A stretch of DNA of 64,000 bases from Octopus sinensis (taxonomy: Eukaryota). The position numbers were made by a program, and so were the translations under genes. The stretch covers positions 3,038,001 to 3,102,000 of the forward strand of contig NC_043025.1 in the NCBI RefSeq assembly GCF_006345805.1, read 5' to 3'. Positions 1-31,800 of the stretch are shown here, piece by piece (position 1 is the stretch's first letter; every line of letters begins with the position of its first letter). The notes under the pieces are model-generated. The model had not been told where the DNA came from. It did not search any database and saw only the letters and a program-made list of their open reading frames with translations.

Positions 1-3000
1 ACAGCCAATGCGAGAGCCTCCGAGACTGCTGAACAACGGGCACTCCGCAATACACAGAACGCGGCTGCTACTGCCAATGCGAGAGCCTCCGAGACTGCTG
101 AACAACGGGCACTCCGCAATACACAGAACGCTGCTGCTACTGCCAATGAGAATGACTGCTGAACAACGATAACTCCGCAATACACAGAACGCTGCTGCTA
201 CTGCCAATGCGAGATCCTCCGAGACTGCTGAACAACGGGCACTCCGCAATACACAGAACGCTGCTGCTACTGCCAATGCGAGAGCCTCCGAGACTGCTGA
301 ACAACGGGCACTCCGCAATACACAGAACGCGGCTGCTAAGCCAATGCGAGAGCCTCCGAGACTGCTGAACAACGGGCACTCCGCAATACACAGAACGCTG
401 CTGCTACTGCCAATGCGAGAGCCTCCGAGACTGCTGAACAACGGGCACTCCTCGATACACAGAACGCGGCTGCTACTGCCAATGCGAGAGCCTCCGAGAC
501 TGTTGAACAACGGGCACTCCGCAATACACAGAACGCGGCTGCTACTGCCAATGCGAGAGCCTCCGAGACTGCTGAACAACGGGCACTCCTCGATACACAG
601 AACGCGGCTGCTACTGCCAATGCGAGAGCCTCCGAGACTGCTGAACAACGGGCACTCCGCAATACACAGAACGCTGCTGCTACTGCCAATGCGAGAGCCT
701 CCAAGACTGCTGAACAACGGGCACTCCTCGATACACAGAACGCGGCTGCTACTGCCAATGCGAGAGCATCCTAGACTGCTGAACAACGGGCACTCCGCAA
801 TACAGAGAACGCGGCTGCTACTGCCAATGCGAGAGCCTCCTAGACTGCTGAACAACGGGCACTCCTCGATACACAGAACGCGGATGCTACTGCCAATGCG
901 AGAGCCTCCGAGACTGCTGAACAACGGGCTCTCCGCAATACACAGAACGCTGCTGCTACTGCCAATGCGAGAGCCTCCGAGACTGCTGAACAACGGGCAC
1001 TCCGCAATACACAGAACGCTGCTGCTACTGCCAATGCGAGAGCCTCCGAGACTGCTGAACAACGGGCACTCCTTGATACACAAAACGCGGCTGCTACTGT
1101 CAATGCGAGAGCCTCCGAGACTGCTGAACAACGGGCACTCCTCGATACACAGAACGCTGCTGCTACTGCCAATGCGAGAGCCTCCGAGACTGCTGAACAA
1201 CGAGCACTCCGCAATACACAGAACGCTGCTGCTACTGCCAATGCAAGATCCTCCGAGACTGCTGAACAACGGGCACTCCGCAATACACAGAACGCTGCTG
1301 CTACTGCCAATGCGAGAGCCTCCGAGACTGCTGAACACCGGTAACTCCGCAATACACAGAACGCGGCTGCTACTGCCAATGCGAGAGCCTCCGAGACTGC
1401 TGAACAACGGTAACTCCGCAATACACAGAACGCTGCTGCTACTGCCAATGCGAGAGCCTCCGAGACTGCTGAACAACGGGCACTCCGCAATACAGAGAAC
1501 GCTGCTGCTACTGCCAATGCTAGAGACTGCTGAACAACGGTAACTCCGCAATACACAAAACGCTGCTGCTACTGCCAATGCGAGATCCTCCGAGGCTGCT
1601 GAACAACGGGCACTACGCAATACACAGAACGCTGATGCTACTGCCAATGCGAGATCCTCCGAGACTGCTGAACAACGGGCACTCCGCAATACACAGAACG
1701 CGGCTGCTACTGCCAATGCGAGAGCCTCCTAGACTGCTGAACAACGGGCACTCCTCAATACACAGAACACTGCTGCTACTGCCAATGCGAGAGCCTCCGA
1801 GACTGCTGAACAACGGGCACTCCGCAATACACAGAACGCTGCTGCTACTGCCAATGCGAGAGCCTCCGAGACTGTTAAACAACGGGCACTCCTCAATACA
1901 CAGAACGCGGCTGCTACTGCCAATGCGAGAGCCTCCGAAACTGCTGAACAACGGGCACTCCTCGATACACAGAACGCGGCTGCTACTGCCAATGCGAGAG
2001 CCTCCGAGACTGCTGAACAACGGGCACTCCGCAATACACAGAACGCGGCTGCTACTGCCAATGCGAGGTTCTCCGAGACTGCTGAACAACGGGCACTCCG
2101 CAATACACAGAACGCTGCTGCTACTGCCAATGCGAGATCCTCCGAGACTGCTGAACAACGGGCACTTCGCAATACACAAAACGCTGCTGCTACTGCCAAA
2201 GCAAGAGTCTCCGAGACTGCTGAACAACGGGCACTCCGCAATACACAAAACGCTGCTGCTAGTGCCAAAGCAAGAGCCTCCGAGACTGCTGAACAACGGG
2301 CACTCCGCAATACACAAAACGCTGCTGCTACTGCCAATGCGAGAGCCTCCGAGACTGCTGAACAACGGGAACTCCGCAATACACAAAACGCTGCTGCTAC
2401 TGCCAAAGCAAGAGTCTCCGAGACTGCTGAATAACGGGCACTCCGCAATACACAGAACGTTGCTGCTACTGCAAATACGAGATCCTCCGAGACTGCTGAA
2501 CAACGGGCACTCCGCAATACACAGAACGCTGCTGCTACTGCCAATGCGAGATCCTCCGAGACTGCAGAACAACGGGCACTCCGCAATACACAGAACGCTG
2601 CCGCTAATGCCAATGCGAGAGTCTCCGAGACTGCTGAACAACGGGCACTCCGCAATATACAGAACGCTGCTGCTACTGTTAATGCGAGGGCCTCCGAGAC
2701 TGCTGAACAACGGGCACTCCGCAATACACAAAACGCTGCTGCTATTGCCAATGCGAGAGCCTCCGAGACTGCTAAACAACGGGCACTCCTCAATACACAG
2801 AACGCGGCTGCTACTGCCAATGCGAGAGCCTCCGAGACTACTGAACAACGGGCACTCCGCAATACACAGAACGCTGCTGCTACTGCCAATGCGAGAGCCT
2901 CCGAGACTGCTAAACAACAGGCACTCCTCAATACACAGAACGCGGCTGCTACTGCCAATGCGAGAGCCTCCGAGACTGCTGAACAACGGGCACTCCGCAA

Positions 3001-6000
3001 TACACAGAACGCTGCTGCTACTGCCAATGCGAGAGCCTCCGAGACTGTCGAGCAACGGGCACTCCGCAATATACAGAACGCTGCTGCTAGTGTTAATGCG
3101 AGAGCCTCCGAGACTGCTGAACAACGGGCTCTCCGCAATACACAGAACGCTGCTGCTACTGCCAATGCAAGATCCTCCGAGACTGCTGAACAACGGGCAC
3201 TCCGCAATACACAGAACGCTGCTGCTACTGCCAATGCGAGAGCCTCCGAAACTGCTGAACAACGGTAACTCCGCAATACACAGAACGCGGCTGCTCCTGC
3301 CAATGCGAGAGCCTCCGAGACTGCTGAACAACGGTAACTCCGCAATACACAGAACGCTGCTGCTACTGCCAATGCGAGAGCCTCCGAGACTGCTGAACAA
3401 CGGGCACTCCGCAATACACAGAACGCTGCTGCTACTGCCAATGCGAGAGACTGCTGAACAACGGTAACTCCGCAATACACAAAACGCTGCTGCTACTGCC
3501 AATGCGAGATCCTCCGAGACTGCTGAACAACGGGCACTACGCAATACACAGAACGCTGATGCTACAGCCAATGCGAGAGCCTCCGAGACTGCTGAACAAC
3601 GGGCACTCCGCAATACACAGAACGCGGCTGCTACTGCCAATGCGAGAGCCTCCTAGACTGCTGAACAACGGGCACTCCTCAATACACAGAACACTGCTGC
3701 TACTGCCAATGCGAGAGCCTCCGAGACTGCTGAACAACGGGCACTCCGCAATACACAGAACGCTGCTGCTACTGCCAATGCGAGAGCCTCCGAGACTGTT
3801 AAACAACGGGCACTCCTCAATACACAGAACGCGGCTGCTACTGCCAATGCGAGAGCCTCCGAGACTGCTGAACAACGGGCACTCCTCGATACACAGAACG
3901 CGGCTGCTACTGCCAATGCGAGAGCCTCCGAGACTGCTGAACAACGGGCACTCCGCAATACACAGAACGCGGCTGCTACTGCCAATGCGAGGTTCTCCGA
4001 GACTGCTGAACAACGGGCACTCCGCAATACACAGAACGCTGCTGCTACTGCCAATGCGAGATCCTCCGAGACTGCTGAACAACGGGCACTTCGCAATACA
4101 CAAAACGCTGCTGCTACTGCCAAAGCAAGAGTCTCCGAGACTGCTGAACAACGGGCACTCCGCAATACACAAAACGCTGCTGCTAGTGCCAAAGCAAGAG
4201 CCTCCGAGACTGCTGAACAACGGGCACTCCGCAATACACAAAACGCTGCTGCTACTGCCAATGCGAGAGCCTCCGAGACTGCTGAACAACGGGAACTCCG
4301 CAATACACAAAACGCTGCTGCTACTGCCAAAGCAAGAGTCTCCGAGACTGCTGAATAACGGGCACTCCGCAATACACAGAACGTTGCTGCTACTGCAAAT
4401 ACGAGATCCTCCGAGACTGCTGAACAACGGGCACTCCGCAATACACAGAACTCTGCTGCTACTGCCAATGCGAGAGCCTCCGAGACTGCTAAACAACGGG
4501 CACTCCTCAATACACAGAACGCGGCTGCTACTGCCAATGCGAGAGCCTCCGAGACTGCTGAACAACGGGCACTCCGCAATACACAGAACGCTGCTGCTAC
4601 TGCCAATGCGAGAGCCTCCGAGACTGTCGAACAACGGGCACTCCGCAATATACAGAACGCTGCTGCTAGTGTTAATGCGAGAGCCTCCGAGACTGCTGAA
4701 CAACGGGCACTCCGCAATACACAGAACGCGGCTGCTACTGCCAATGCGAGACCCTCCGAGACTGCTAAATAACGGGCACTCCGCAATACACAGAACGCTG
4801 CTGTTACTGTCAAAGCAACAGCCTCCGAGACTGCTGAACAACGGGAACTCCGCAATACACAGAACGCTGCTGCTACTGCCAATGCGAGAGACTGCTGAAC
4901 AACGGTAACTCCGCAATACACAAAACGCTGCTGCTACTGCCAATGCGAGGTTCTCCGAGACTGCTGAACAACGGGCTCTCCGCAATACACAGAACGCTGC
5001 TGCTACTGCCAATGCGAGAGCCTCCGAGACTGCTGAACAACGGGCACTCCTCGATACACAGAACGCTGCTGCTAGTGCCAAAGCAAGAGCCTCCGAGACT
5101 GCTGAACAACGGGCACTCCGCAATACACAGAACGCTGCTGCTACTGCCAATGCGAGAGCCTCCGAGACTGCTGAACAACGGGTTCTCCGCAATACACAGA
5201 ACGCGGCTGCTACTGCCAATGCGAGATCCTCCGAGACTGCTGAACAACGGGCACTCCTCGATACACAGAACGCGGCTGCTACTGCCAATGCGAGAGCCTC
5301 CGAGACTGCTGAACAACGGGCACTCCGCAATACACAGAACGCGGCTGCTACTGCCAATGCGAGGTTCTCCGAGACTGCTGAACAACGGGCACTCCGCAAT
5401 ACACAGAACGCTGCTGCTACTGCCAATGCGAGATCCTCCGAGACTGCTGAACAACGGGCACTTCGCAATACACAAAACGCTGCTGCTACTGCCAAAGCAG
5501 AGTCTCCGAGACTGCTGAACAACGGGCACTCCGCAATACACAAAACGCTGCTGCTAGTGCCAAAGCAAGAGCCTCCGAGACTGCTGAACAACGGGCACTC
5601 CGCAATACACAAAACGCTGCTGCTACTGCCAATGCGAGAGCCTCCGAGACTGCTGAACAACGGGAACTCCGCAATACACAAAACGCTGCTGCTACTGCCA
5701 AAGCAAGAGTCTCCGAGACTGCTGAATAACGGGCACTCCGCAATACACAGAACGTTGCTGCTACTGCAAATACGAGATCCTCCGAGACTGCTGAACAACG
5801 GGCACTCCGCAATACACAGAACGCTGCTGCTACTGCCAATGCGAGATCCTCCGAGACTGCAGAACAACGGGCACTCCGCAATACACAGAACGCTGCCGCT
5901 AATGCCAATGCGAGAGTCCTCCGAGACTGCTGAACAACGGGCACTCCGCAATATACACAGAACGCTGCTGCTACTGTTAATGCGAGGCCTCCGAGACTGC

Positions 6001-9000
6001 TGAACAACGGGCACTCCGCAATACACAAAACGCTGCTGCTATTGCCAATGCGAGAGCCTCCGAGACTGCTAAACAACGGGCACTCCTCAATACACAGAAC
6101 GCGGCTGCTACTGCCAATGCGAGAGCCTCCGAGACTACTGAACAACGGGCACTCCGCAATACACAGAACGCTGCTGCTACTGCCAATGCGAGAGCCTCCG
6201 AGACTGCTAAACAACAGGCACTCCTCAATACACAGAACGCGGCTGCTACTGCCAATGCGAGAGCCTCCGAGACTGCTGAACAACGGGCACTCCGCAATAC
6301 ACAGAACGCTGCTGCTACTGCCAATGCGAGAGCCTCCGAGACTGTCGAGCAACGGGCACTCCGCAATATACAGAACGCTGCTGCTAGTGTTAATGCGAGA
6401 GCCTCCGAGACTGCTGAACAACGGGCTCTCCGCAATACACAGAACGCTGCTGCTACTGCCAATGCAAGATCCTCCGAGACTGCTGAACAACGGGCACTCC
6501 GCAATACACAGAACGCTGCTGCTACTGCCAATGCGAGAGCCTCCGAAACTGCTGAACAACGGTAACTCCGCAATACACAGAACGCGGCTGCTCCTGCCAA
6601 TGCGAGAGCCTCCGAGACTGCTGAACAACGGTAACTCCGCAATACACAGAACGCTGCTGCTACTGCCAATGCGAGAGCCTCCGAGACTGCTGAACAACGG
6701 GCACTCCGCAATACACAGAACGCTGCTGCTACTGCCAATGCGAGAGACTGCTGAACAACGGTAACTCCGCAATACACAAAACGCTGCTGCTACTGCCAAT
6801 GCGAGATCCTCCGAGACTGCTGAACAACGGGCACTACGCAATACACAGAACGCTGATGCTACAGCCAATGCGAGAGCCTCCGAGACTGCTGAACAACGGG
6901 CACTCCGCAATACACAGAACGCGGCTGCTACTGCCAATGCGAGAGCCTCCTAGACTGCTGAACAACGGGCACTCCTCAATACACAGAACACTGCTGCTAC
7001 TGCCAATGCGAGAGCCTCCGAGACTGCTGAACAACGGGCACTCCGCAATACACAGAACGCTGCTGCTACTGCCAATGCGAGAGCCTCCGAGACTGTTAAA
7101 CAACGGGCACTCCTCAATACACAGAACGCGGCTGCTACTGCCAATGCGAGAGCCTCCGAGACTGCTGAACAACGGGCACTCCTCGATACACAGAACGCGG
7201 CTGCTACTGCCAATGCGAGAGCCTCCGAGACTGCTGAACAACGGGCACTCCGCAATACACAGAACGCGGCTGCTACTGCCAATGCGAGGTTCTCCGAGAC
7301 TGCTGAACAACGGGCACTCCGCAATACACAGAACGCTGCTGCTACTGCCAATGCGAGATCCTCCGAGACTGCTGAACAACGGGCACTTCGCAATACACAA
7401 AACGCTGCTGCTACTGCCAAAGCAAGAGTCTCCGAGACTGCTGAACAACGGGCACTCCGCAATACACAAAACGCTGCTGCTAGTGCCAAAGCAAGAGCCT
7501 CCGAGACTGCTGAACAACGGGCACTCCGCAATACACAAAACGCTGCTGCTACTGCCAATGCGAGAGCCTCCGAGACTGCTGAACAACGGGAACTCCGCAA
7601 TACACAAAACGCTGCTGCTACTGCCAAAGCAAGAGTCTCCGAGACTGCTGAATAACGGGCACTCCGCAATACACAGAACGTTGCTGCTACTGCAAATACG
7701 AGATCCTCCGAGACTGCTGAACAACGGGCACTCCGCAATACACAGAACTCTGCTGCTACTGCCAATGCGAGAGCCTCCGAGACTGCTAAACAACGGGCAC
7801 TCCTCAATACACAGAACGCGGCTGCTACTGCCAATGCGAGAGCCTCCGAGACTGCTGAACAACGGGCACTCCGCAATACACAGAACGCTGCTGCTACTGC
7901 CAATGCGAGAGCCTCCGAGACTGTCGAACAACGGGCACTCCGCAATATACAGAACGCTGCTGCTAGTGTTAATGCGAGAGCCTCCGAGACTGCTGAACAA
8001 CGGGCACTCCGCAATACACAGAACGCGGCTGCTACTGCCAATGCGAGACCCTCCGAGACTGCTAAATAACGGGCACTCCGCAATACACAGAACGCTGCTG
8101 CTACTGTCAAAGCAACAGCCTCCGAGACTGCTGAACAACGGGAACTCCGCAATACACAGAACGCTGCTGCTACTGCCAATGCGAGAGACTGCTGAACAAC
8201 GGTAACTCCGCAATACACAAAACGCTGCTGCTACTGCCAATGCGAGGTTCTCCGAGACTGCTGAACAACGGGCTCTCCGCAATACACAGAACGCTGCTGC
8301 TACTGCCAATGCGAGAGCCTCCGAGACTGCTGAACAACGGGCACTCCTCGATACACAGAACGCTGCTGCTAGTGCCAAAGCAAGAGCCTCCGAGACTGCT
8401 GAACAACGGGCACTCCGCAATACACAGAACGCTGCTGCTACTGCCAATGCGAGAGCCTCCGAGACTGCTGAACAACGGGTTCTCCGCAATACACAGAACG
8501 CGGCTGCTACTGCCAATGCGAGATCCTCCGAGACTGCTGAACAACGGGCACTCCTCGATACACAGAACGCGGCTGCTACTGCCAATGCGAGAGCCTCCGA
8601 GACTGCTGAACAACGGGCACTCCGCAATACACAGAACGCTGCTGCTACTGCCAATGCGAGGTTCTCCGAGACTGCTGAACAACGGGCACTCCGCAATACA
8701 CAGAACGCTGCTGCTACTGCCAATGCGAGATCCTCCGAGACTGCTGAACAACGGGCACTTCGCAATACACAAAACGCTGCTGCTACTGCCAAAGCAAGAG
8801 TCTCCGAGACTGCTGAACAACGGGCACTCCGCAATACACAAAACGCTGCTGCTAGTGCCAAAGCAAGAGCCTCCGAGACTGCTGAACAACGGGCACTCCG
8901 CAATACACAAAACGCTGCTGCTACTGCCAATGCGAGAGCCTCCGAGACTGCTGAACAACGGGAACTCCGCAATACACAAAACGCTGCTGCTACTGCCAAA

Positions 9001-10816
9001 GCAAGAGTCTCCGAGACTGCTGAATAACGGGCACTCCGCAATACACAGAACGTTGCTGCTACTGCAAATACGAGATCCTCCGAGACTGCTGAACAACGGG
9101 CACTCCGCAATACACAGAACGCTGCTGCTACTGCCAATGCGAGAGCCTCCGAGACTGCTAAACAACGGGCACTCCTCAATACACTGTTACTGTCAAAGCA
9201 ACAGCCTCCGAGACTGCTGAACAACGGGAACTCCGCAATACACAGAACGCTGCTGCTACTGCCAATGCGAGAGACTGCTGAACAACGGGCACTCCGCAAT
9301 ACACAAAACGCTGCTGCTACTGCCAATGCGAGGTTCCGAGACTGCTGAACAACGGGCTCTCCGCAATACACAGAACGCTGCTGCTACTGCCAATGCGAGA
9401 GCCTCCGAGACTGCTGAACAACGGGCACTCCTCGATACACAGAACGCTGCTGCTAGTGCCAAAGCAAGAGCCTCCGAGACTGCTGAAGAACGGGCACTCC
9501 GCAATACACAGAACGCTGCTGCTACTGCCAATGCGAGAGCCTCCGAGACTGCTGAACAACGGGCACTCCGCAATACACAGAACGCTGCTGCTACTGCCAA
9601 AGCAAGAGTCTCCGAGACTGCTGAACAACGGGCACTCCTCGATACACAGAACGCTGCTGCTAGTGCCAAAGCAAGAGCCTCCGAGACTGCTGAACAACGG
9701 GCACTCCGCAATACACAGAACGCTGCTGCTACTGCCAATGCGAGAGCCTCCGAGACTGCTGAACAACGGGCACTCCGCAATACACAGAACGCGGCTGCTA
9801 CTGCCAATGCGAGATCCTCCGAGACTGCTGAACAACGGGCACTCCGCAATACACAGAACGCTGCTGCTACTGCCAATGCGAGAGCCTCCGAGACTGCTGA
9901 ACAACGTGCACTCCTCGATACACAGAACGCGGCTGCTACTGCCAATGCGAGAGCCTCCGAGACTGCTGAACAACGGGCACTCCGCAATACACAGAATGCT
10001 GCTGCTACTGCCAATGCGAGGTTCTCCGAGACTGCTGAACAACGGGTACTCCGCAATACACAGAACGCTGCTGCTACTGCCAATGCGAGATCCTCCGAGA
10101 CTGCTGAACAACGGGCACTCCGCAATACACAAAACTCTGCTGCTACTGCCAAAGCAAGAGTCTCCGAGACTGCTGAACAACGGGCACTCCGCAATACACA
10201 AAACGCTGCTGCTACTGCCAATGCGAGAGCCTCTGAGACTGCTGAACAACGGGCACTCCGCAATACACAGAACGCTGCTGCTACTGCCAATGCGAGAGCC
10301 TCCGAGACTGCTGAACAACGGGCACTCCGCAATACACAAAACGCTGCTGCTACTGCCAAAGCAAGAGCCTCCGAGACTGCTGAACAACGGGCACTCCGCA
10401 ATACACAGAACGCTGCTGCTACTGCCAATGCGAGAGCCTCCGAGACTGCTGAACAACGGGCACTCCGCAATACACAGAACGCTGCTGCTACTGCCAATGC
10501 GAGAGCCTCCGAGACTGCTGAACAACGGGCACTCCACAATACACAAAACGCTGCTGCTAGTGCCAAAGCAAGAGCCTCCTAGACTGCTGAACAACGGGCA
10601 CTCCTCGATACACAGAACGCGGCTGCTACTGCCAATGCGAGAGCCTCCGAGACTGCTGAACAATGGGCACTCCGCAATACACAGAACGCGGCTGCTACTG
10701 CCAATGCGAGAGCCTCCGAGACTGCTGAACAACGGGCACTCCGCAATACACAGAACGCTGCCGCTACTGCCAATGCGAGAGTCTCCGAGACTGCCGAACA
10801 CCGGGCACTCCGCAAT
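1..10816 (+). repeat. 69-bp tandem satellite array (~157 units, open at window start) derived from a 23-aa STPR-like coding repeat
   Basis: Consensus GCCAATGCGAGAGCCTCCGAGACTGCTGAACAACGGGCACTCCGCAATACACAGAACGCTGCTGCTACT repeated head to tail. Occasional ~62-bp units lacking part of GCCTCCG occur near 1518, 3442, 4882, 6739, 8179 and 9264. ORFs 3502..4908 and 6799..8205 translate identically (period 3297 bp). Confidence 0.98.
9326..10582 (+). pseudogene. Stop-free stretch of ~18 STPR-like 23-aa repeats (N-terminal repeat region of a Helitron RepHel protein)
   Basis: Translates as (ETAEQRALRNTQNAAATANARAS)n with the E1-T2-x-E4-x-R6-x-x-R9 pattern of STPR repeats. It is in the same frame as the downstream helicase. 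Confidence 0.7.
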
Positions 10817-10819
10817 TAA

Positions 10820-11908
10820 AAAACTTGCAGCATTGGCAAAAATTCAGAGGAAGCTGAAGTTCTTAGACAGTGCCGTCTCATTGTATGGAATGAATGCACA
10901 ATGGCCAATAAGGGTGCCCTTGAAGCACTGGACCGGTCACTGAAAGATATAAGGAATTCTACAGCTTTTATGCTTTCAGGAGATTTCCGGCAAACCCTTC
11001 TTGTCATCCCTAAAGGGAGCAGGGCTGATGAAGTGCGCGCATGCCTTAAGTCATTCACGTTGTGGCCCCAGGTTAAGACGTTAAGCCTAAGCACAAACAT
11101 GCGTGTGCACTTGCTTGGTGATAGCACGTCTGCGGCATTTGCTGAAAACATTTTAACCCTTGGGGAAGGCAAGGTCCCTAGGAATGATAGGGGTGACATA
11201 TCCATCTCTGAACTGTGCAACACCGTGGACATCCCTTCCGATCTTTTGGAAACAGTGGTCCCCAATCTGGAAAGTAATTATGCAGACATCAATTGGCTCA
11301 GTAAAAGAACCATCCTGGCCCCTAAAAAGGTAACTTTCAGTGCTATCAACGACCAGCTCCTAAGTCGAATTCCGGGTGAAGAGCGCATCTACAAATCGAT
11401 TGACCGGACCTTTGACCCCCAAGACATTGTCAATTACCCTATCGAGTTCCTCAACTCATTGGAGCCAGCAAGTCTTCCACCTTACATTCTTAGGCTAATG
11501 GTTGGATGCCCAATTATGCTAATCAGAAACTTGCTTCCGCCTAAACAGTGCAATGGGACCCGCTTAATAGTCAAGCCCCTGACTCCCCACTTGATTGAGG
11601 CCACCATTGTTACAGGGTGTGGGAGGGGTGAACATATTTTCATTTCATGGATGCACCTTTATCCCTAGGGATCAGACATGCCGTTTAACTCCCGCAGATC
11701 GCAGTTCCCAGGGAGACCATGCTTTGCCATGTCCATCAACAAATCTCAAGGCCTATCACTATCGGTGACAGGCATCCATTTGGGCGATCCATGTTTTTCA
11801 CATGGGCAACTTTATGTGGCCTGCTCCCGTGTGGGGAGTAGAAACGCTCTTTTTGTGTATGCTCCTCAGGGCAGAACACGCAATGTTGTCTATAGCGAAG
11901 TTTTATAG
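10820..11908 (+). pseudogene. PIF1-family (Helitron) helicase, C-terminal part, decayed
   Basis: Motifs seen: TCSIGKNSEEAEVLRQCRLIVWNECTM (Walker B DE changed to NE), LSGDFRQTL, LSTNMR, ILAPK, GCPIMLIRNL, CNGTRL, FAMSINKSQG, FSHGQLYVACSRV, TRNVVYSEVL. One in-frame TAG at 11666-11668. Walker A and the Rep/HUH domain are absent. Confidence 0.93.
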
Positions 11909-13402
11909 ACAAGTCGTCATTACAGCCGATGTGGTTATAAACAGGTGATCCGGAAGCATTGGTCGGATATATTCTCAGAACATGGACTCTTCCGCTTTTT
12001 TATTGGACAATACTGACGTCCACAACAATGCTCACCTGGCCGATATCAGTGCTTGTCTAAGTTGCTCATAGAGTTAGGCTAGAAGGGACAAGCCCTTTAT
12101 TTTTGGGTTAAGGCTGTTGCTAAGCTTTCCTAAGTTACTCCAATCCAGATCTCCAATGCAAACTTTTTCCTATGCAGATCTTTAATGCAACGTTATCCAA
12201 TCCACATCTTTTAGTCACCCATCTTCACTGTAGATCTCCAATGCAAACCTTCAATGCATCCTTATCCAATGTAAACCTTCGATTCAACCTTCTCGAATGC
12301 AGATTTCCAAGGTACCCTTCACCAATGCATATCTTCGATGCAGCCTTAACTGATAGTAACCCTAGAAGGGGTTAGGTCTAGATTAGGATTAGTCACTGCC
12401 TTGCCGTAGGGGTTCCTACCTCATGGGCCAAGGAGGTTAGATGATATGGTTGGTGTCTTCAAAAGGGCTGGCATGTGCAGCCTGATCACCTCTGCCGGTT
12501 AAACTCCCAACCCATGCGTTCCCGTCGTGACACTTATTCTACAGAACTGGGTTGGGTGTGAAAACCAACTTTAAAGTATAAATATACATTTTTTTGAATC
12601 AGCAATGTTGTTCTCGGTTAAGTCCTATTTGGGGCGAAAAATCAATAAACTGATAAACCAATTCCTTATAGGATTTCCCACTAAAATTGGCTACACCCCA
12701 TTTTCAACTATAACTTATGCCAATTTTGACATATTTTGTTCAAAATTGATGCCAACATTACCTAGGACTCATGGGATCTTTGAATGCTTTAAGTTCTCAA
12801 AAAAAAAATACAGTCGATGAGTGGAAATAATCAATAAACCAATTCCTTATAGGATCTCCTAATTAATTTGCCTGCAACCCATTTTCAACGAAACGTTCAC
12901 CAATTTCAACGGATTTCGCTCAAATTTGATGTCGGTGCAACTTATTTTGGTTTGAAATAAAGCGCTCGATCACTTAATAATCCTAACGTAATCCCGGGCA
13001 ACGCCGGGCTATACTGCTTGTATCAAATAAACCTGAACATCAAAAACACTGACCTACATACACAAACACACATACATACAGAGATAAACACAACTCTACA
13101 CATTCACACGCAGTAACCATACTTAGTGGATCTTCTATAAAATTAATGAACCGTAAATTTTGTGTACTGTAAAAATGTGTTGCCCCTAAACCCAGTTGGG
13201 CTGCTAAACCCGATGGGTCCCCACAAGCAACTGTATTGTAACGAATGATTTCTTTTTTATGCATCTCGGTTTTAGAAGCGTTCATACAAATTCTTCATGA
13301 AATATGCTTTGATGATTTCATTTTACTAAATTTTTTATCCAAAACGAGAGCAAAGAATGAAGATAGATTTCCATGAAAATAATGTTCCTTCACATTACTT
13401 CA

Positions 13403-15924: not shown

Positions 15925-18900
15925 TGTTTTAGTCTTCAGGTTCTACATTTTGCTGATTTCTATTTCAAAATCTTTATATTTGCTCAGTTTTTGGTAGGTC
16001 TTGACAGATATGTTTATATCGATTGGGACAGTCATATCAATGAGGAGACATGTTCTTTGTCTGAAGTCTTTCAATATGATATCTGACCTATTTGCATCTA
16101 TCTTTCTGTCAGTTTGAATGGTGAAGTTCCAGAGGAGTGAGATGTGGTCATTTTCAAGCATTGGAGGTGGTTTGTGTTCCCACCAGTTTTTATCATGGGG
16201 CAAGTCCAGGCTTCTGCAAATTACCAAGTGAATATATTGTGCAGCTCTATCATGCCTGTTGAGATACTCTGTAGGCGCAAGAAGACTGTACTTGGAGACA
16301 ACATGATCAATGGTCTCAGTTTGTTGTTGACATACACGACATGTTGGGCTACTGCCGTTCTTTAATATGTTGGCCTGGTAGTTCCTTGTAGGTAGGCATT
16401 GATCTTGAGCTGCGATGATGAACCCTTCTGTTTCAGATTTTAAGTCAGAGGTCTTAAGCCATTGATGGGTCAGGGCTTTGTCAACATCTGCTTTATTCGC
16501 TCTCTTTGGGTATTTGCCATAGAGAGGTTTTTCTTGACGTTTATCATTCAGAATATCTAAGGCCACAGTTTTAGCACGGGTTTTCATGTGCTTAGCTTTT
16601 TCTGTGCTTTTTCTTGTATGTCTAATTTCGAAATTTGTTGTATTCGGAATTCACTTAGATATTCCTTTGCCTGTTTTGTTACTGAGTATGATACTTGCTA
16701 GTTTTCATGTTTTGAGACAAGTTTTAACATCCAGTCCTCAGAGTTTTTCAGGTAGGTGTCTAGGCCATTTGTAGCAATCTTCATTGTTATTGCCAGTTGT
16801 AAAAGTCCACGGCCTCCCTCTTTTCTTGGCAGATAAAGTCGTCCTGTATCTGCCTTAGGGTGGTGCATTCTATGCATTGTCAACAGTTCTCGTATTTTTC
16901 TGTCAAGATTAAATATTTCAGTAATTGACCAGTTAACGATATTGAAACTGTAAGTCACGACTGGTATGGCTAAAGCTTTGATCGCTTAGATCCTGTTTCT
17001 CGCATTCCGCTCTGTCTTGAGTATTGCTCTTACTCTGCGATAACATTCTCTCCTGGTCCTTTCCTTCATCACTGAATGCCTTATTCCATCCCCTTCAATT
17101 ACCCCTAGATACTTGTAGCTCTCCGCTGGGTCTAATTCTTTTATGACATTCTGCTGGTCAAGCTTAACGTTAGATGTTTCTGTCACTTTTCCTTTGATAA
17201 AGGTGGCTTTTGCACATTTATCGTGGCCAAATTGCATTCTGATGTCATCACTGAATTGTTTAACAATCTCTAGTAAGCCCTTGAGTTGTTGGTCATTTTT
17301 GCAAAGAGCTTCAAATCATCCATGTAAATGAGTTGATTTATATTTTTATCAAACCTTTTATATCTGTACTGCGCATCATTGAGCAATTTTGAGAGAGGTA
17401 TCAAGGCTAAACAAAAGAGGAGTGGTGATAGTGAGTCACCCTGAAAAATGCCACATGAAATATTTACATCACCAGCATTTAGAGAATCATTGTCACTATT
17501 CAAATTTAATGTGGTTCTCCATGATCTCATACTTACAGACAAGAGGTTTCGCAGAGTAGGCGCAATTTTGTACATTTCTAGGCTCTCTTTATCCAGGTAG
17601 GCTATCAAAAGCCTTTTCATAGTCTATCCAGGCTATTGACAAGTTTTTGTGTCGTTTGTGACAATCTTCTAAGATCATCTTATTGATGAGTAGCTGATCT
17701 TTACAACCATAAGATCCACGTTTACATCCTTTCTGTTCATTAAGGAATATGCTGCTGTGTGTCAAAAAACTATAGGTATATTCCGTCAGGACAGATGTTA
17801 GCGTTTTAAACATACTTGTTAAGCAGGTTATGAGTCTATAGTTTTTTGGTTCATTTGTTTCTTCACTTTTTGGAAGCAGGAATGTTAATCCATTAACTAG
17901 CCAAGGAGGCATCCTACTAGGGTGTTGCCAAACATCACTGTAAAGTTCTGTTAGCAGTTCATGGCTCTCTTGGAAGGTATTCAACCAGAAGTTAGGAATT
18001 TTCTCCTGTCCTGGAGACTTCCATTTGCTTGACCTCCTGAGAGCAGATCTTATATCTTCTACCTTGACACCCTCCCACTTTTGCTCTTCTAAGGAGTCCA
18101 GTTCTGTAGATATTCTATCAATCCAGGGGTCCTTTTCGTTGTGTGTTTTTTCTACTGCCCAAATTTTATTCCAAAATCCCCGCACTTCTTCTTTTGATGG
18201 TGTTTTTCCTATCTTCCTGTAAAAATTTTTGGGGTTATTTTTTAACATGATGTTGTCCTTGAAGAATCTAACACGTTTTTCATACCTCGCTATGCGAGCA
18301 GCTTTAGCAGATACCTTTTGCTTGATGGTTTCTATGGTGGCATCAATATCAAGTATAGTTTTCATATTATATTTTTTCATTAATTTTGGGGTTTTTGTAG
18401 GTTTAGTAGTCCTGTCAACCTTAAGGTTTTTCAAATATTCAATATAAGATCTAAATAGTTTGATTTGTTGTTGGATACGCTCTTGCCAAGAAGACTTTTT
18501 GTGAGAATGTTGCCGTTTTCTAACCTTTTCACCACATAGGATCGTTGAGATTTTCGCGGATGCATAGAATATGTGGTTGAGATCTGTGATATCAACATCA
18601 TTAGCTGAAATTATATCCTTAAGTTCAAGCCGGATTTTACCAATTATTTTCATGTTTTGGTTAGAGTTTCGGATTTTAGGGAGTGTATCGCGTTCATCCA
18701 TACTGGTCTCTTTAATTTTCAGTCATTCAATCATGATTTGATTTTTTAGCTCATGTAGTTCTGTTGTGTCAATATTTGTATGACTTTCTTCATCTATTTT
18801 GATGTTCATCTGTCTTAGTGTTTATGATTGGTTCAGGGAGTATTTCACTTTGCCTATCACTTATACTAACTCTTTCAATCCTTACTTCGTTTCTATCAGC

Positions 18901-23470: not shown

Positions 23471-25575
23471 TTTTCTTTATTAGCTACACAGGGCTGCACA
23501 CAGACAACAAATTACAAGGTAGAGCTTTTCTTTTGGGGGTAAAATATAGGGGGTTGGTTTTCGATCAAAGGGGATCGTAAAAGGAAAGAAAGAGGATAAA
23601 AAAAGGGGAGGATTTTTAAAAAAAAGGGGGGGGAGAAGGAAAAAAAGAAAAGGGGAGAGGAAAAAAAGTTGATCAATAGAGATCGTAATCACAGAAATGT
23701 CAATATGAAGTGTAAAGGGAAGGACAGGTGAGGTTTACCCGTGGAAAGAAAAGCCTACGGAAAATACCACGGTAACCTCGGTCAATGAAGTCACATGTTA
23801 TATTTCTTTTTTTCTTTGTTTTTTTTTTGCAAATAAGCAACTCTCTGTATTAATTTTTACGGTTCATAGAATCATAGTCAAGGTGGCTTCGTCATTCATA
23901 TGTGCCAATTTTGCTACATTCACCCATCTTTTTTTAAAACATTCACTAGACAAAACTTGCATCTCTACTCTCACTTTCCTCTCCAAGTGATACTTGAAGA
24001 AGTTGATGAGAGATTGACCAGAGAGGAAAGTGTTTGTCTCTAATCCTTTCAGGCGCGTCCACCAGATACATTCTTTCGCCATAGCCACAAGTATGATAAA
24101 AATAGCTTTTCCTTCCCGTTTGAAGGAAGGAGGCGTGACGATATTAACGATAGACTCGGCTGATAAACCGACACGTCCCACACGTGACAGCAGTCGTTCG
24201 ACATAAGCCCACAGGTCGGAAATTGCTGGACACTGCACGATTGCGTGCAGAGCAGTTTCGTCGCTCTGCCCGCATCTCGGGCAGGTCGGCTCCGTGTTTC
24301 TCGAGCCATGCCTATAGAGCTTATCCCGAACGGGTAGCGCTTCTCAGTAGCACCGCCAGGCCAGGGATCTCTGGAAGTTGTCCATAGGTCCCGGGCCGAA
24401 AGTCGTTTGAAACAGGCGGGTTAGGTATTCCTCGTCGACGCCCAGGTTTGCCCCGAGATCGTCGTCGTACCTCCCCTCCACTAATCCCCTATAGAATGCT
24501 TTGGTTGTGTTGAAGTCACTGAAGGTCGACCCGGGACGGCAGAGTTGCTTGAGAGCAACGCGACACTCGCGGTGCCATTCGCCCTTCCTCGGTCTCTTTT
24601 TGATCCACGACTGTAGTTCGGTCATGGAGACGAGTTGCGGGAATGCGTGCCTCACAAACGGCGACCACACCTGTTCACCGTCGTCTACATAGAGCCGGAG
24701 ATGGTGCAGTCTCAGCGCGTGTCTGCGCATCATCAACCACGGCATGCCCAGCCCTCCTTTTAACGGGTGTTGACAGCAAATGGATCGCCTGACCATCGGG
24801 ACGCATCCTTTCCACAAGAAGCGGAAGAGAATGCGTTCTAGTTTGGTGATGGTAGGGTCGGGACAAGGTACGACGGTCAGGCGGTAGTAGATGATGGACG
24901 CGATGTACGTGTTCGCCACCTCCGCCCGACCATTTAGGGACAGTTTCCTCTCGGCCCATTGCTGGGCGAGAGTGACCACCCTACTCGTTATCTCGTTCCA
25001 GTTCTTCTCCATTTGGCAGTCCGGACCGAACCAGACCCCGAGCAACTCAACCGGGCGTCCCAACTGTCCAGCGTCCCACGACGGAGGTACTGGTGGACGG
25101 CATGGGCTTGCTTCTCCAGGTGCCGAGCCGCAAGCCCACTGACTTTTCCCGGTTGATTTTTGCTCCTGTCACCGCTTCGTAGTCTTTCAGTGTCTCGCCG
25201 ACCCACTCGATGTGCTCGTGGCTTGACACTATGACGGTGACGTCGTCCGCGTATGCAGACACGTTCGTCCCGCATCCCAATTCTCGCGGGATGCCCCTCA
25301 GAGTCGCCAGCTTCCGCAGTAGTGGCTCAAGAGTCAATACGTATAGAAGGGCCGAGAGGGGGCATCCCTGACGGACCGAACGTGCAATGTCCAAAGGTCT
25401 CGATAGATGTCCATTTACACGAATTACCGAACGGATGCCTCTGTACAAGGCAGCTATCCAGCCGCGGAAGACGGGACCGAAACCAGCCGCTCTCAGGACT
25501 GCCTCCAAGTATCGATGGTCTACCCTATCGAAGGCTTTCGATTGATCCAAGTTGATCAGGGCCCCACCAATGCCA
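23471..25575 (-). mobile_element. 5'-truncated Tx1-like (L1 group) LINE, copy A
   Basis: RT motifs LDQSKAFDRVDH, VRQGCPLS, AYADDVTV, LLGVWF, GGLGMP and a C-terminal CxxC..ET..H..C finger. The 3' end reads AATAAAGAAAA and runs directly into (TATC)n. Confidence 0.92.
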
Positions 25576-25897
<322 letters not shown>

Positions 25898-25898
25898 A

Positions 25899-28800
25899 CT
25901 TTCTTTTATTAGCCACACAGGGCTGAATACAGAGGGGACAAATACAAATGTAGAGCTTTTCTTTTCGAGGGTGGGAAAAAAAGGGGGAAAATAAATGTAA
26001 GATTGCGATCAAAAGGGGTCGAGAGGAGGAAAAAAAAGAAAAGAAATCGTGTATCACAGAAACAATGATAAAAACATTGATAAAACAAGATTGGGTTCAT
26101 CCGTGGGAGGAAAAGCCTACAGAAAAGACCACGGGAACCTCAGTTTCTTTTTTACGATCTACAGGATCATGCTTAAAATGGTTTCGTCACTCGCACGCAC
26201 CATCTTTGCAACATTCACCCATCTTTTTTTTAATCTTTCGCGAGACAAAACTTCCCTCTCCATTCTCACCTTCCTTTTCAAGTGGTACTTGAAAAAGTTG
26301 ATGAGCGATTGGCCAGAGAGGTAAGTGTTTGTCTCTAATCCTTTCGCTCGGGTCCACCACACACATTCTTTCACCATGGCCACCAGTACGATGAAAACTG
26401 CCTTGCCTTCCCGGTTGAGGGAAGGGGGCGGAGCAATTCTCACGATAGACTCGGCCGATAGGTGGATTCGTCCCACACGTGACAGCAGCCGTTCGGCATA
26501 AGCCCACAGGTCTGAAATGGTTGGACATTGCACGAGTGCGTGCAGAACGGTTTCGTCGCTCTGACCGCATCTCGGGCAAGTCGGGCCAGTGTGTCTGGAA
26601 CCGTGACTGTAGAGCTTATCCCGAACAGGTAATGCTTCTCGATAGCACTGCCAGGCCAGGGATCTTTGGTGATTGTTCATAAGTCCCGGCCCGAAAGTTG
26701 TCCTGAACAGGCGGGTCAGGTGTTCCTCGTCGACGCCCAGACTCTGCCCGAGTTCGTCGTCGCACCTCCCCTCCACTAATCCTCTATAGAATGCCTTTGT
26801 TGTGATGGAGTCGCACAAGTTCGATCCCGGACGGCAGAGTTGCTTGAGAGCAACGCGTCACTCGCGGTGCCATTCGCCTAGCCTCGGTCTCTGCTTGATC
26901 CATGACTGTAGTTTGTCCAAGGAGACGAGCTGCGGGAAAGCGCGCCGCACAAAAGGCGGCCACACCTGTTCACCGTTGTCTATGAAGCGCCGGAGATGTC
27001 GCGGTCTCAGCGCATGTCTGCGCATCATCAACCACGGCATGCCCAGCCCTCCATTTAGCGGGTGTTGACAGCAAATGGATCGCCTAACCATCGGAACGTT
27101 TCCCTTCCACAGGAAGCGGAAGAGTATACGTTCCAGTTTGGTGATGGTAGGGTCGGGACAAGGCACGACGGTCAGACGATACTCGATGACGGATGCGATG
27201 TACGCGTTCGCCACCTCCGCCCGACCTTTTAGGGATAGCTTTCTCTCAGCCCATTTCTGGGTGAGAGTAGCCACCCTAGTCGTTATCTCGCCCCAGTTCT
27301 TCTCCATTTGGAGGTCCGGACCGAACCAGACCCCGAGGAATTTAACCGGTCCGTCCGTCCAGCGTCCCACGATGGAGGTGCTGTTGGACGGCATGGGCCT
27401 GCTTCTCCAGGTGCCGAGACGCAAGCCCACTGACTTTTCCCGGTTAATTTTTGCTCCCGTTACCGCTTCATATTCTTTTAGTGTCTCGCCGACCAGCTCG
27501 ATGTGCTGGTAGCTCGACACTATGACGGTGACGTCATCCGCGTATGCAGACACGCTCCTCCCGCATCCCAGCTCTCGTGGGATGCCCCTCAGCGTCGCCA
27601 GTTTCCGCAGTAGTGGCTCAAGAGTCAATATATACAGCAGCGATGAGAGGGGGCATCCCTGACGAACCGAACGCATGATGTTAAAAGGTCTGGATAGATG
27701 ACCATTTACGCGAACTACTGAGCGGATGCCGCTGTATAAGGCAGCGATCCAACCGCGGAAAGCTGAACCGAAACCAGCCGCCTTAAGGACAGCCTCCAAG
27801 TAGTGATGGTCTACCCTATCGAAAGCTTTTGATTGATCCAAATTGATCAGCGCCCCACCCATACCAGGATTCTTAACTACCCTGTCTATGATGTAGCGCA
27901 TCAGATGGAGGTTGTCATGAATACTTCTACCCGGCACGGCGCATGTTTGCGCCTTGTCGATTAGTTTCTTGATGACAAGCGCCAACCTCTCGGCTAACAC
28001 CTTGGCCAAAATTTTCAAATATGCGTTGAGCAGAGTGATGGGCCTGAAATTATCTATGACGTCCCCCTTGTTTGGGTCTTTCTTAATCAGTGCCACTGCT
28101 CCTCGTTTTGCTGCCAGTTGCAGTAGACAGCTGCCAAGACGCCTCCAAACAAGTCTGGCATATGACAATAAAGTTCGTAGGGCAGACCATCCAAGCCTGG
28201 TGACTTGTCTCTCGCGCAGCCTACCATCGCATCCTGTACGTCCGCAGCTGTGATAGGCCTTTCACAAGACTCCACCTCTCTTGCTGAGAGTCGTGGCAAG
28301 GCATGCAGGTAGGCACTGAAGTCCACTCTGCGTTCTGACCCACCACTTGTCCCAAACAGTTGGGTGAAGTGTTGTTGAAAAGCCCCACACATCCTTTTAG
28401 GCTCGAGCAATTCGCGCCCCTGTTCATCTATAAGAGACTTGATGGTGGCTCTGTTGCCTCGTTGCGTCTCCACCACTCGGGCCTCTTGGGCGGCTCCAAC
28501 TCCTTCGTTCCTCAGAGCACGCATCCTAGCTCTGACAACGCATCCCTCGTGTTTGGCGTTGAGGTGTTAGTCGAGGGCCAATCTGGCCGCCAGCACGTTG
28601 GACGCGATGCCAGTTCTAAGTGCCTCTTCTAAAACCTTAACTAATTCTCCCTTTATTCTATTTCGGTCTAATGCTAGGGCTTTACTGTATCTGACTGATT
28701 CTGCTTTAATTGCTTTTTTTAGTGCATACCACCATCTGTTGTTGATGATGGTACCCGTCAAAGCTCTCTTAACTAATGTGTTGATCCGGTCCCTGTAAAC

Positions 28801-31800
28801 CCGTCGTGCTGTAAAAGACGCGTTCAGTTTCCAGTAACCAGGACCCTGCCTATGTGTCTTATCTAAATCAAGTGTTCAAGTCACAAACTTGTGATCTGTG
28901 TAACTGACTATATGAAATTGTGGACAACCTACACTATTTTTATCTATTGTCCTACAGAATACTCTAAGTATGATCTGGACGACCCGATGCGGTTACTCCA
29001 TGTCCACATTGGCACATTCGGGTGGCCCAGTCGGTACCTGTCAGACAGTTGGAAACGTCTGAGCAGGTCTTTGAGGCATTTGCGTCCCCTTCTATTGCTA
29101 TCTCTGCCCACGTAGTCTAGATGCGTGTCCAGGGTGGCATTCCAATCCCCCACTAAATGTAAAGGACGAGACGTTCCCATGAAATACTCTAGACGTCGAA
29201 AGAGATCTGGTCGGCATGTTAAGGAGGGAGCATAAACTGCTATCAGTCGAAAAGCACACACATTGCTGCCATCGACATCCAAAACGACCAGCCTACCCTC
29301 CGGGTCTAGGAAAATTACTCTTACTTTGAGATCTAGACTCTTCCGGAGAAGCACCGCGGTGCCACCTCCGCCCATTCTCGGTAGACACGGAGAAAAATAA
29401 ATGTTGAAATGTGTACCGAAACTGTGCTGGAGTGCCCGCGAGCTGTGGAGTCTGGTCTCACTGATGGCTATGATATTCAGATTTAGTGACTTGATGTCAT
29501 TTAACAGGTAGCCTTGTTTCCAAGGCGACCCCAAGCCACGTACATTTATACTGCCTATTCTGAGCATGTTCCGACAAAAAATTGTGTTTTACACACGAAA
29601 AGAAAGTGCAAAAAAGGAAAGAGAGAGAGAAAAGGTTACTTGTTCGAAAGTTCTTTGTTTTTCACCTCACAGTCTTCTTCCATGAGGTTTTTGTATAGTT
29701 TCTTTGATGAATACTTTTGAAATCTCCCTACTGCATCAGGGTAAAGAGATTTCAGGGTGCTGTATGTGTTCTGTGTTACGTGTATTATTTTAATGTGTCG
29801 TGGTGGTGTTGTGCGTGAGTGGTTATTTGTTTTTATGTCGTTTTCAGTTATGTTGGTGTTTGACCTAATGTGTTCCATTAGGTCGTGGTTGTTTGTGTTT
29901 ATGGCTGTCAACAATGTTGGGGGGTTTGATGATGGTGTGTTTGTGTTGATGTGTTTGTTTTCTGTGGATGTTTTTGTTTCGGGGGAGGTGAATCTTCCTG
30001 CTTTGTTTGTTATCTTTTCTTTTCTTTTTTCCCCTTTTTCTTCTCCCCCCTGTGGCTATTTGCCAATCTTCTGTGTCTTCTTCGTCTAATGACAAATCAG
30101 AGGAATCAGAGCTTGAGAGAGGGAAAATATTGGGGTCTATTGTAGACTGTGTTGATTTTGTTGTTGGTGTTGGTTGGTGAGCGTTAGGTTGTGATGTATG
30201 CGGTTTTGGAGGTGGGATGTGGGTATTTTGTGTTTGAGTGATTGTAGGTATTGTTGTGTTGTTTGGGGTGTCAATTTTGTGGGGATTTGGAGTAGTAATT
30301 GTTTCTTCATTTTCGATGAGTGTCTTTTTGGCAGAAGTCCTTGGTTTGGGAGTTGGTTTATTCTTGGTTGTTGTTGTTGTTGGTGTTGCTTCTGTTCTTG
30401 GTGCAGTTGGTGTGGTTGTTTGGTTGGTGAGGTTTATTTTTTGTTGATTTTCTGTGATTAGTCCTGTTCGTGCAAAACGTGGTGTGGGTAGTAAAGCTGG
30501 TTTATTTGTTTTTTCCGGCTGCTGTTGTTTTCTTGCGGCAGATTTGCAATCTTTTTTTAGGTGTTGCTCACAGCCGCATATGTTGCAACGTGGTCTTCTG
30601 CCATCGACGACCACATACAACTTGTGGTCTTCTGATACACATATCTGGGTGGGTATTTTCTTAATGTCCTCTTGGTTTATATGTAGTAGAAATTCTACTT
30701 TTTTTCCCACCCAGTTTTTGTGCTCCGTGACCGTAGTTTCTAAAATTGTGAAATCTTCCATTTTCACACATAAGGCCTTTACTAGCCATAGATTGTTAGC
30801 TATTTTTGGGACATTGTTTAAAGTGATCTTAGTCACTTTCTGTCCACGATAGCTTGGTGTTAGTTGAAGTTCATCTGAATGAAGAGTTAGCGTTGAGAAA
30901 CGTCTTGCTAACTCCTCAGTATGGAAGACCACTTGTATGTGTGCGAACTTGTTCCACCAGGTCACATACTCTTTGTAGTTCCAGATGGGTTTCAAGCATT
31001 TTTCGATTTTGCTTGTGTTAGCCTTCTCTGGAATTTTTGTTTTCTTATTAATTATTTTATATATAATAGTTCTTTTTTTTTCATCTTCGAATATTTCTTG
31101 TGGTATGTTTATTTTTACTATACCATCTACTTCCGTTATTAAAATGTTCGTATCTTTTATTTGTTGTGCAGTAAAATATACTGTTGTCTTTTTCTTTTAT
31201 CGCCTCGGCGAAATTTGTTGTTGTTTTGTTATTGTTGTTGCTGGTGGTGATGTTGTTGTTGGCTGCAGTTGGTAAAATTGCTGTATTTGGTTTGATTGTG
31301 CAAGTAGGAAGGGGTGGAAAATTACTTGCATAGTTTATCCCTGTATTCAAGCAGCTTTTGTCAATTTGTTTGGTGGTCACAGTCTTTTGTTTATTCCCTT
31401 CAGTTCTTGTTGTTGGAGGAAAGAAGGTCTGAACGGAATTGTTGTTGTTGTTATTGTTGTTTTTGTTGTTGGCGGTGGTGTCAGTGGCAGAAGAGACAGC
31501 CGTGGCAGCAGATGTCGAAATGGTGGCGCAAATGTTGTTATTCTTGTTGTCATTGTTATTGTTGTTGTTGTTGGTAGTTGAGGTAGTGGATGAGGTGGCG
31601 GTGGTGGTGGTGGTGGATGCGGTGGTGGTAGCAGTAGTAGTCTTGTTGTTGTTGTTGTTAGTGGTGGTGGTGACAGTGCTGTTATCGCAAGTGGTTGCAG
31701 CGTTCACTGCCATGTCATTTAGGTTTGCACTTTGCGTGCATGAGTTCTTTTTTTCTTCTCCTAGCGTTTCCAGACTAGGAAAATGTTGGTCGATAAAAGA

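Follow-up and report, generated by a model that had tools for sequence, protein, structure and literature searches.

A 69-bp satellite in Octopus sinensis probably derived from a coding STPR repeat of a Helitron transposase

The window considered here is a stretch of 64,000 nucleotides from Octopus sinensis (NCBI RefSeq assembly GCF_006345805.1, contig NC_043025.1, positions 3,038,001 to 3,102,000 of the forward strand), and its first 13,020 positions hold the downstream part of a Helitron transposon in which a long 69-bp satellite array is directly followed by the remnant of a PIF1-type helicase and by the 3' end of the element. It is argued below that this satellite probably arose by amplification of a single STPR repeat of the Helitron's own transposase. 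Canonical Helitrons begin with TC, end with a hairpin followed by CTRR, and insert between A and T without duplicating their target, and autonomous members encode an intact RepHel open reading frame (ORF) with the HUH and Y2 motifs of Rep and a full PIF1 helicase. The features of the element that lie within the window are the following.

1-10816, + strand: 69-bp satellite array, one unit corresponding to one predicted 23-residue STPR repeat (Tandem Repeats Finder (TRF), anchor spacings and Pfam)
2696-9289, + strand: recent 48-unit (3.3-kb) block duplication, 2696-5992 being repeated at 5993-9289 with 99.1% identity
9338-10579, + strand: open stretch of the STPR frame nearest to the junction, 414 aa, without a start codon and closed by TAG at 10580-10582
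10811-10829, + strand: junction left by a deletion, at which the last STPR unit of the parent meets the helicase with 2-3 nt of microhomology
10820-11908, + strand: truncated PIF1-type helicase pseudogene, beginning past Walker A and with six codons missing near 10970
11909-12992, + strand: Helitron 3' non-coding region, common to other copies of the family
12993-13008, + strand: subterminal hairpin CCCGG-GCAACG-CCGGG, kept in the family
13017-13020, + strand: 3' terminus CTTG, followed by the target T at 13021

The 69-bp unit and its array

The majority 69-bp unit of the window array translates as ETAEQRALRNTQNAAATANARAS, and its assignment to the STPR repeats, proposed in a preliminary description of this DNA, is borne out by profile comparison: against the Pfam STPRs profile (PF21107; curated cut-off 27) 18 units score 142.4 bits (E=6e-42) and three units alone 30.5 bits. 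The full score lies well above the cut-off, so that the lack of an STPR match, named in that description as a finding that would tell against it, was not encountered. FMBP-1 (PDB 5d23) was the sole PDB match to the unit (E=9.6e-6, in a search up to E=10). The strict 23-residue tandem period of STPR proteins is reproduced in the DNA, where 69 bp equal 23 aa and 168 of 184 units measure exactly 69 bp. According to the available part of the FMBP-1 study (PMC4856987), the conserved STPR positions are Glu1, Thr/Ser2 and Arg9, and DNA is contacted by Arg6, Arg9, Leu10, Tyr16 and Arg20. In the octopus unit Glu1, Thr2 and Arg9 align with FMBP-1, R6 and R9 are retained, positions 10, 16 and 20 are N, A and A, and an R stands at 21. 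Thus, the Bombyx repeat and the unit have in common the 23-residue period, Glu1, Thr2, Gln5, Arg6, Arg9 and an alanine-rich helix, whereas the unit lacks Leu10, Tyr16 and Arg20 and is, as far as can be told from the DNA, untranslated. The same source gives four units for Bombyx FMBP-1 and three to seven for other proteins, and transposons are nowhere mentioned in its available text (no match for 'transpos'). The 69-bp unit is one STPR repeat, and as such one repeat of a predicted DNA-binding domain.

TRF reports a single array at 4-10816 (period 69, 157.7 copies, 91% matches), in keeping with the at least 157 copies first described, and the array starts about 1.8 kb upstream of the window, at about C29:3036170, which brings the total to 185 units and 12.6 kb. 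Among the 155 anchor spacings in the window, 140 are of 69 bp and two of 138 bp, and the remaining 13 are not divisible by three; therefore, no single frame runs through the whole array. Of the 168 69-bp units of this array 31 contain a stop in the STPR frame, and 16 of its 184 units shift the frame. These lesions were multiplied with the units, the best 40-unit run of the 48-unit block duplication containing seven stop units and two frame-shifting ones, and further block offsets of 25 and 28 units are present in the window array. Long head-to-tail arrays, blocks of 48, 28 and 25 units and a separate majority unit in each array are all found, as in a satellite. This satellite is non-coding, to judge from stops and frameshifts that were spread by amplification and from a TGA fixed in one subfamily. 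Open stretches of 400-1,070 codons within the arrays were considered as genes and rejected, the majority unit being stop-free in two frames and the stretches being devoid of a start.

The Helitron, its parent family and its duplicates

The helicase following the array was correctly recognised from the outset as PIF1, the remnant matching Pfam PIF1 (E=1.7e-25, profile positions 87-221 of 223) and Pif1_2B. Besides its missing Walker A, the pseudogene reads NE for the DE of Walker B and carries an internal TAG at 11666-11668. In the window the last 22 units and the helicase lie in one frame, which goes on past a TAA at 10817-10819 as KTCSIGKNSEEAEVLRQCRLIVWNECTM, and the helicase-matching frame extends back only to 9338, with the further TAG at 10580. 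The preliminary description had taken the array to be still in frame with the helicase, a view that does not survive comparison with a 93%-identical paralogue at C29:2.65 Mb, which has the 3' host flank, the CTTG end and the deletion in common with the window copy and whose helicase is the sister of the window's (support 100/99 in a tree of 20 rows, none dropped). At the paralogous junction the terminal unit of the parent can be followed position by position, and the helicase is entered out of frame; in the window a single base is missing at 10817/10818, which produces both the TAA and the apparent in-frame join. About 2.9-3.1 kb are missing at the junction, including the C4 motif, Rep and helicase motif I. 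A longer look-alike between the unit and the AHSAF codons of the helicase was tried as the deletion point and rejected because the alignment sets the join about 40 bases further on. Public short-read contigs from three studies span the junction in three forms, namely with an extra base (run X2), with two bases fewer (X1 and a second contig of X4) and in the window's form (X4), although one of these runs possibly comes from the same sample as the window. It follows that the junction is real and that its frame has not been conserved. The in-frame link between array and helicase is, on these alignments, a one-base accident.

The same read data provide a separate observation on abundance. Over the unit (window positions 10748-10817) X2 and X4 exceed X1 about 100-fold in summed contig depth, whereas their junction contigs are similar in depth; this faintly suggests that samples differ greatly in copy number, although depth is not copy number. 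In run X14, which bears another organism label, the helicase is covered and none of five bins over the unit is, lack of cover not being proof of absence. Among the public runs listed as containing this DNA none was of RNA, which speaks neither for nor against expression.

Retrieval of the sequence upstream of the window located the 5' TC end, the ATG and the A|T target. The element measures about 16.5 kb, its 5' A|TC end lying at C29:3034517 (the same start is found in the family copy L046), and the ATG follows some 1.4 kb downstream, at C29:3035894. The frame from this ATG reads MPSKKRICLGRR..., comprising three degenerate STPR-like units and then a first stop at codon 64, and it also loses frame after four array units. 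The host flank is itself a repeat, and in all three of the host-repeat paralogues examined (empty sites, about 80% identical) both flanks adjoin; therefore, insertion took place between A and T and did not duplicate the target. Of the hairpin and CTRR-like end that had been placed at 12993-13020, the hairpin stands, at 12993-13008, but the terminus is CTTG and not CTRR. CTTG also ends the paralogue at C29:2.65 Mb, and the family form is CTAG: among 11 other family copies with an inspected 3' end, same-insertion copies excluded, all end in TAG and 10 in CTAG. The folding energy of the hairpin is not in itself significant (z=-1.3), and the hairpin is accepted because it is conserved at the 3' end of the family. 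The description of the element as a Rep-deleted Helitron holds, and the parental copies keep the Rep region missing here. It is not an autonomous Helitron, Rep and Walker A being deleted in the window copy, and both Rep-bearing parents are themselves broken.

These parents belong to the large family defined by the helicase and the 3' tail (2,066 candidates, 40 scored). Inspection of 19 family loci revealed 16 without a unit match within 10 kb, one with a long array and two, L043 and L046, with the parental order of 5' end, ORF start (88-90% identical to that of the window element), 2-3 near-identical units, about 3 kb of further sequence and helicase. The 3 kb contain the C4 motif, the HUH and Y2 motifs of Rep and Walker A. 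A search with the Rep region returned only L043, L046 and one fragment at high identity among the 40 matches listed. Because L043 and L046 carry 2-3 such units together with Rep and PIF1, the satellite is taken to derive from the coding repeat of the transposase, and the linkage of the unit to Rep and helicase elsewhere in the genome, which the preliminary description had called for, has thus been found. At another locus of this family, L056:485, the 3' end of one copy directly meets another 5' end, in a head-to-tail tandem insertion.

Relatives with STPR units are not restricted to this family. A second, nearly intact one in the same genome combines Pfam STPRs and Helitron_like_N within one 1,018-aa frame; it is younger (L085-L090, L092 and L096-L100, with open frames of 1,018 aa in L085 and 909 aa in L096) and is about 65% identical in DNA to the parent family of the satellite. 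A fragment on C9 has 11 diverged units that remain open for 260 aa, with a ratio of nonsynonymous to synonymous polymorphism (pN/pS) of 0.68. In other genomes intact RepHel proteins contain 6, 7 or 11 consecutive units and partial or HLE2-type ones 9-10, the maximum being 11 among the 11 proteins in this count. Within a larger set of 168 proteins, 141 have the C4 motif, and 36 of these 141 show at least two units in the 23-residue register under a strict pattern, with a maximum of 7. Nothing near 100 units was seen in RepHel relatives, although best-hit protein searches on gene calls could miss very long arrays. The pairing of STPR and RepHel is already visible in precomputed Pfam architectures, and the nearest named proteins for the related element are from Octopus species. 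On the counts above, a tract of 2-11 STPR units is a normal N-terminus of RepHel proteins.

Two further observations concern other STPR proteins. At C18:3.40 Mb (L091:6290-7300 and 2080-3618, minus strand) two single-frame ORFs of 337 and 513 aa lack Rep and contain short tracts of basic repeats; the one of 337 aa matches Pfam STPRs, and both are possible host STPR genes. The Octopus vulgaris protein P0172 combines a Helitron-like N-terminus, four STPR-type units and a fused BTB domain (PF00651), possibly by exon capture or domestication.

Counts over the whole genome (2.72 Gb) with three unit patterns gave 1,255, 293 and 1,935 matches, with no match on the reverse strand for any of the three. 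The matches of all three patterns can be assigned in full to known loci, the 1,935 of the degenerate pattern falling in three arrays (107+216+1,609) and in the 11-unit C9 fragment (3). The satellite thus appears confined to three related loci, the window's, a second one on C29 and one on C18, plus the C9 matches, though exact patterns could miss more diverged arrays. The second C29 array, at the paralogue at C29:2.65 Mb, has 312 anchors over 22 kb and begins at a scaffold gap, so that its size is a lower bound. The C18 array extends over 169 kb with 2,389 anchors (about 2,400 units) and has lost both Helitron ends; it shares at least 13 kb of 5' host flank with the window locus at 90-95% identity and starts 162 bp short of the Helitron 5' end, and is therefore a duplicate of the same insertion that lost its 5' part. 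It consists of two sequence subfamilies, and in the 5' part of the array the majority unit has a fixed TGA. In C10236, a fourth duplicate, flank and 5' end are still present, whereas array and helicase are gone (0 units). That the C18 and second C29 arrays might be alleles of the window locus was considered, but the flank identity of 90-95% and the different insertions make it more likely that they are paralogues.

At its other side the C18 array passes, in the assembly, without a gap (C18:17514320-17543643) into GC-rich spacer repeats of 141, 215 and 234 bp belonging to ribosomal DNA (rDNA), followed by a full 18S-5.8S-28S unit (45S rDNA; the 18S match spans 2,645 bp). Pieces of the rDNA spacer occur at 99% identity on many contigs; therefore, the chromosomal position of this rDNA is uncertain. 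Within the C18 array an inserted element of about 330 bp, SINE-like (short interspersed nuclear element) in look, is present three times (17444280, 17448345 and 17458410), each time at the same unit position, copied by block duplication. The region upstream of the window, C29:2918001-3034000, is a mosaic of local duplications with 80-97% identity, common to C18:17.28-17.34 Mb and many unplaced contigs. No host gene was seen in the window, whose remaining features were named from their translations only.

15943-18722 and 23864-31196, - strand: broken ORFs of long interspersed nuclear element (LINE) type
53081-53569, + strand: Tc1-like transposase fragment

Origin of the satellite

The explanation that we favour, and hold to be probable, is that of a non-coding satellite whose monomer is one transposase STPR repeat, amplified at one dead Helitron insertion and at the duplicates of that insertion, likely by unequal exchange after translation had ceased. 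The process would have begun with a parent family encoding, from its ATG, a few STPR units, the C4 motif, Rep and PIF1, as can be read in the parental copies, and one copy would have entered a host repeat, between A and T, within a duplication-rich region, as the flanks attest. A deletion of about 3 kb would then have joined the last STPR unit to the middle of the helicase, out of frame; the junction itself is observed, repair at the 2-3 nt of microhomology is the presumed mechanism, and the deletion may have preceded or followed the first expansion of units. Units would subsequently have multiplied in blocks of 25-48, carrying stops and frameshifts along, as the block duplications indicate, with unequal crossing-over or gene conversion as the presumed driver. 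Duplication of the surrounding region would have yielded the at least four insertion copies that are found, with 185, at least 312, about 2,400 and 0 units, the largest of which, as seen in the assembly, would have lost both Helitron ends, split into two subfamilies and come to adjoin rDNA. Finally, the three junction forms suggest that the window copy later lost one base, from which the TAA and the accidental frame resulted. Of the two possibilities raised in the preliminary description, the passage of a coding repeat into a satellite is the one that parents, 11-unit fragment and arrays now document.

Several points weigh against this explanation. The variants among window units lean synonymous in the STPR frame, with pN/pS of 0.55 in a 60-unit sample and 0.69 for distinct alleles, compared with 0.70-1.9 in the other two frames. 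The other two arrays, with 0.82-0.92 and 0.99-1.86, have no clear synonymous lean, and the lean in the window may be variation inherited from a coding ancestor of several units, the units not being independent. Array lengths come from one assembly, errors of assembly or sequencing could account for the 99% block duplication and for the numerous 1-bp indels of the other two arrays, and no recombination event was seen directly.

A broader proposition, which we rate as unlikely, is that STPR tracts are variable-length, self-homogenising DNA-binding modules of Helitron transposases (2-11 units) and hence coding minisatellites from the start, whose copy number escapes into that of a satellite once the transposase is dead, the product having here been recruited as a 169-kb block bordering the nucleolar organiser, with the gap-bounded second C29 array possibly forming the far side of the same rDNA cluster.

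The other possibility raised at the outset, that the array is left over from an active Helitron family with a transposase bearing a very long modular DNA-binding tract of 100 units or more, is now distinctly improbable. It draws on the synonymous lean of the window units and on the variation of unit number in coding copies (11 diverged units in the C9 fragment; 6, 7 and 11 in intact RepHel proteins), but the Rep-bearing parents hold 2-3 units, neither the 141 C4-bearing relatives (at most 7, strict pattern) nor the 11 proteins of the other count (at most 11) come near such a length in searches that could have missed very long arrays, long arrays exist only at copies of one insertion, and the expansion copied stops. 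An equally small chance is given to rolling-circle replication of the Helitron, by concatemer formation or slippage during transposition in trans, as the maker of the array. The array does lie within intact Helitron ends, and the L056 copy is followed head-to-tail by another 5' end; however, only the internal 69-bp unit was multiplied and not the whole element, long arrays are limited to duplicates of one insertion, which have host flanks in common and all lie on one strand, and the largest array is without Helitron ends.

It is very improbable that the array, or its join to the helicase, is an assembly artefact, even though the 3.3-kb block is duplicated at 99.1% with gap-rich differences and the second array begins at a scaffold gap. 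The join, about which the preliminary description had voiced concern, is carried by contigs of three studies, one maybe the window's own sample, and by the 93%-identical paralogue, and both outer ends match the empty target site. A functional STPR-helicase fusion kept in frame by selection, now or once, perhaps through stop read-through, can practically be dismissed, for although the helicase shares its frame with the final 22 units, the junction was ancestrally not in frame, the ORF meets a stop at codon 64 and loses frame after four units, and the helicase is without Walker A, shows NE in place of DE and contains an internal stop.

Known systems and biological meaning

Satellites derived from transposon ORFs are already in print, as stated in the available portion of PMC9659126, and the comparisons that follow likewise draw on the available portions of the sources named. 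The closest known case is CficCl-61-40 of Chenopodium, from the tnp2 domain of the CACTA element Jozin (PMC7320549), in which, as here, the monomer stems from transposase-coding DNA and arrays are still attached to deletion derivatives of the parent element. In that case the monomer is a tnp2 fragment of about 40 bp, whereas in the octopus it is a pre-existing, in-register protein-repeat unit (69 bp = 23 aa) of a Helitron, found at duplicates of one insertion only. Drosophila DINE-TR1, oyster satellites and the Heli2Xen minisatellites of Xenopus (PMC12692304, PMC9659126, PMC12001565) also represent internal tandem repeats of Helitrons that became stand-alone arrays. Those repeats are central repeats of non-autonomous elements or end arrays and were spread by transposition; unlike them, the present satellite consists of the transposase's own coding repeat and is not dispersed. 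PMC6947457 contributes nothing further on satellites from internal Helitron repeats.

With respect to the canonical RepHel Helraiser (PDB 7lcc), an intact STPR-bearing relative, P0003, matches at E=3.8e-255, and the C4-Rep-PIF1 order of canonical Helitrons is also that of the parent copies, the window copy having lost Rep and half of the helicase. A satellite whose monomer is one protein repeat was not found in the literature, in which subscription papers and Repbase reports were thinly covered. A full-text search found STPR together with Helitron in no paper, and titles and abstract openings on STPR/FMBP-1, Helitron satellites, RepHel N-terminal repeats and octopus satellites contained nothing on this satellite among the matches listed.

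The case is an unusually well-documented change of a protein-repeat exon segment into a satellite. The origins of satellites are usually inferred from partial similarity, and here the whole path is readable in one genome, from 2-3 coding units over an 11-unit fragment and arrays of 185 and 312 or more units within Helitron ends to a 169-kb stand-alone array with subfamilies. As the ancestral protein repeat has a known frame, the loss of coding constraint and concerted evolution become directly measurable. In addition, STPR, which was described from host transcription factors, is placed at the N-terminus of many RepHel transposases, so that it becomes testable whether host STPR proteins came from Helitrons and whether the repeat helps to bind transposon ends.

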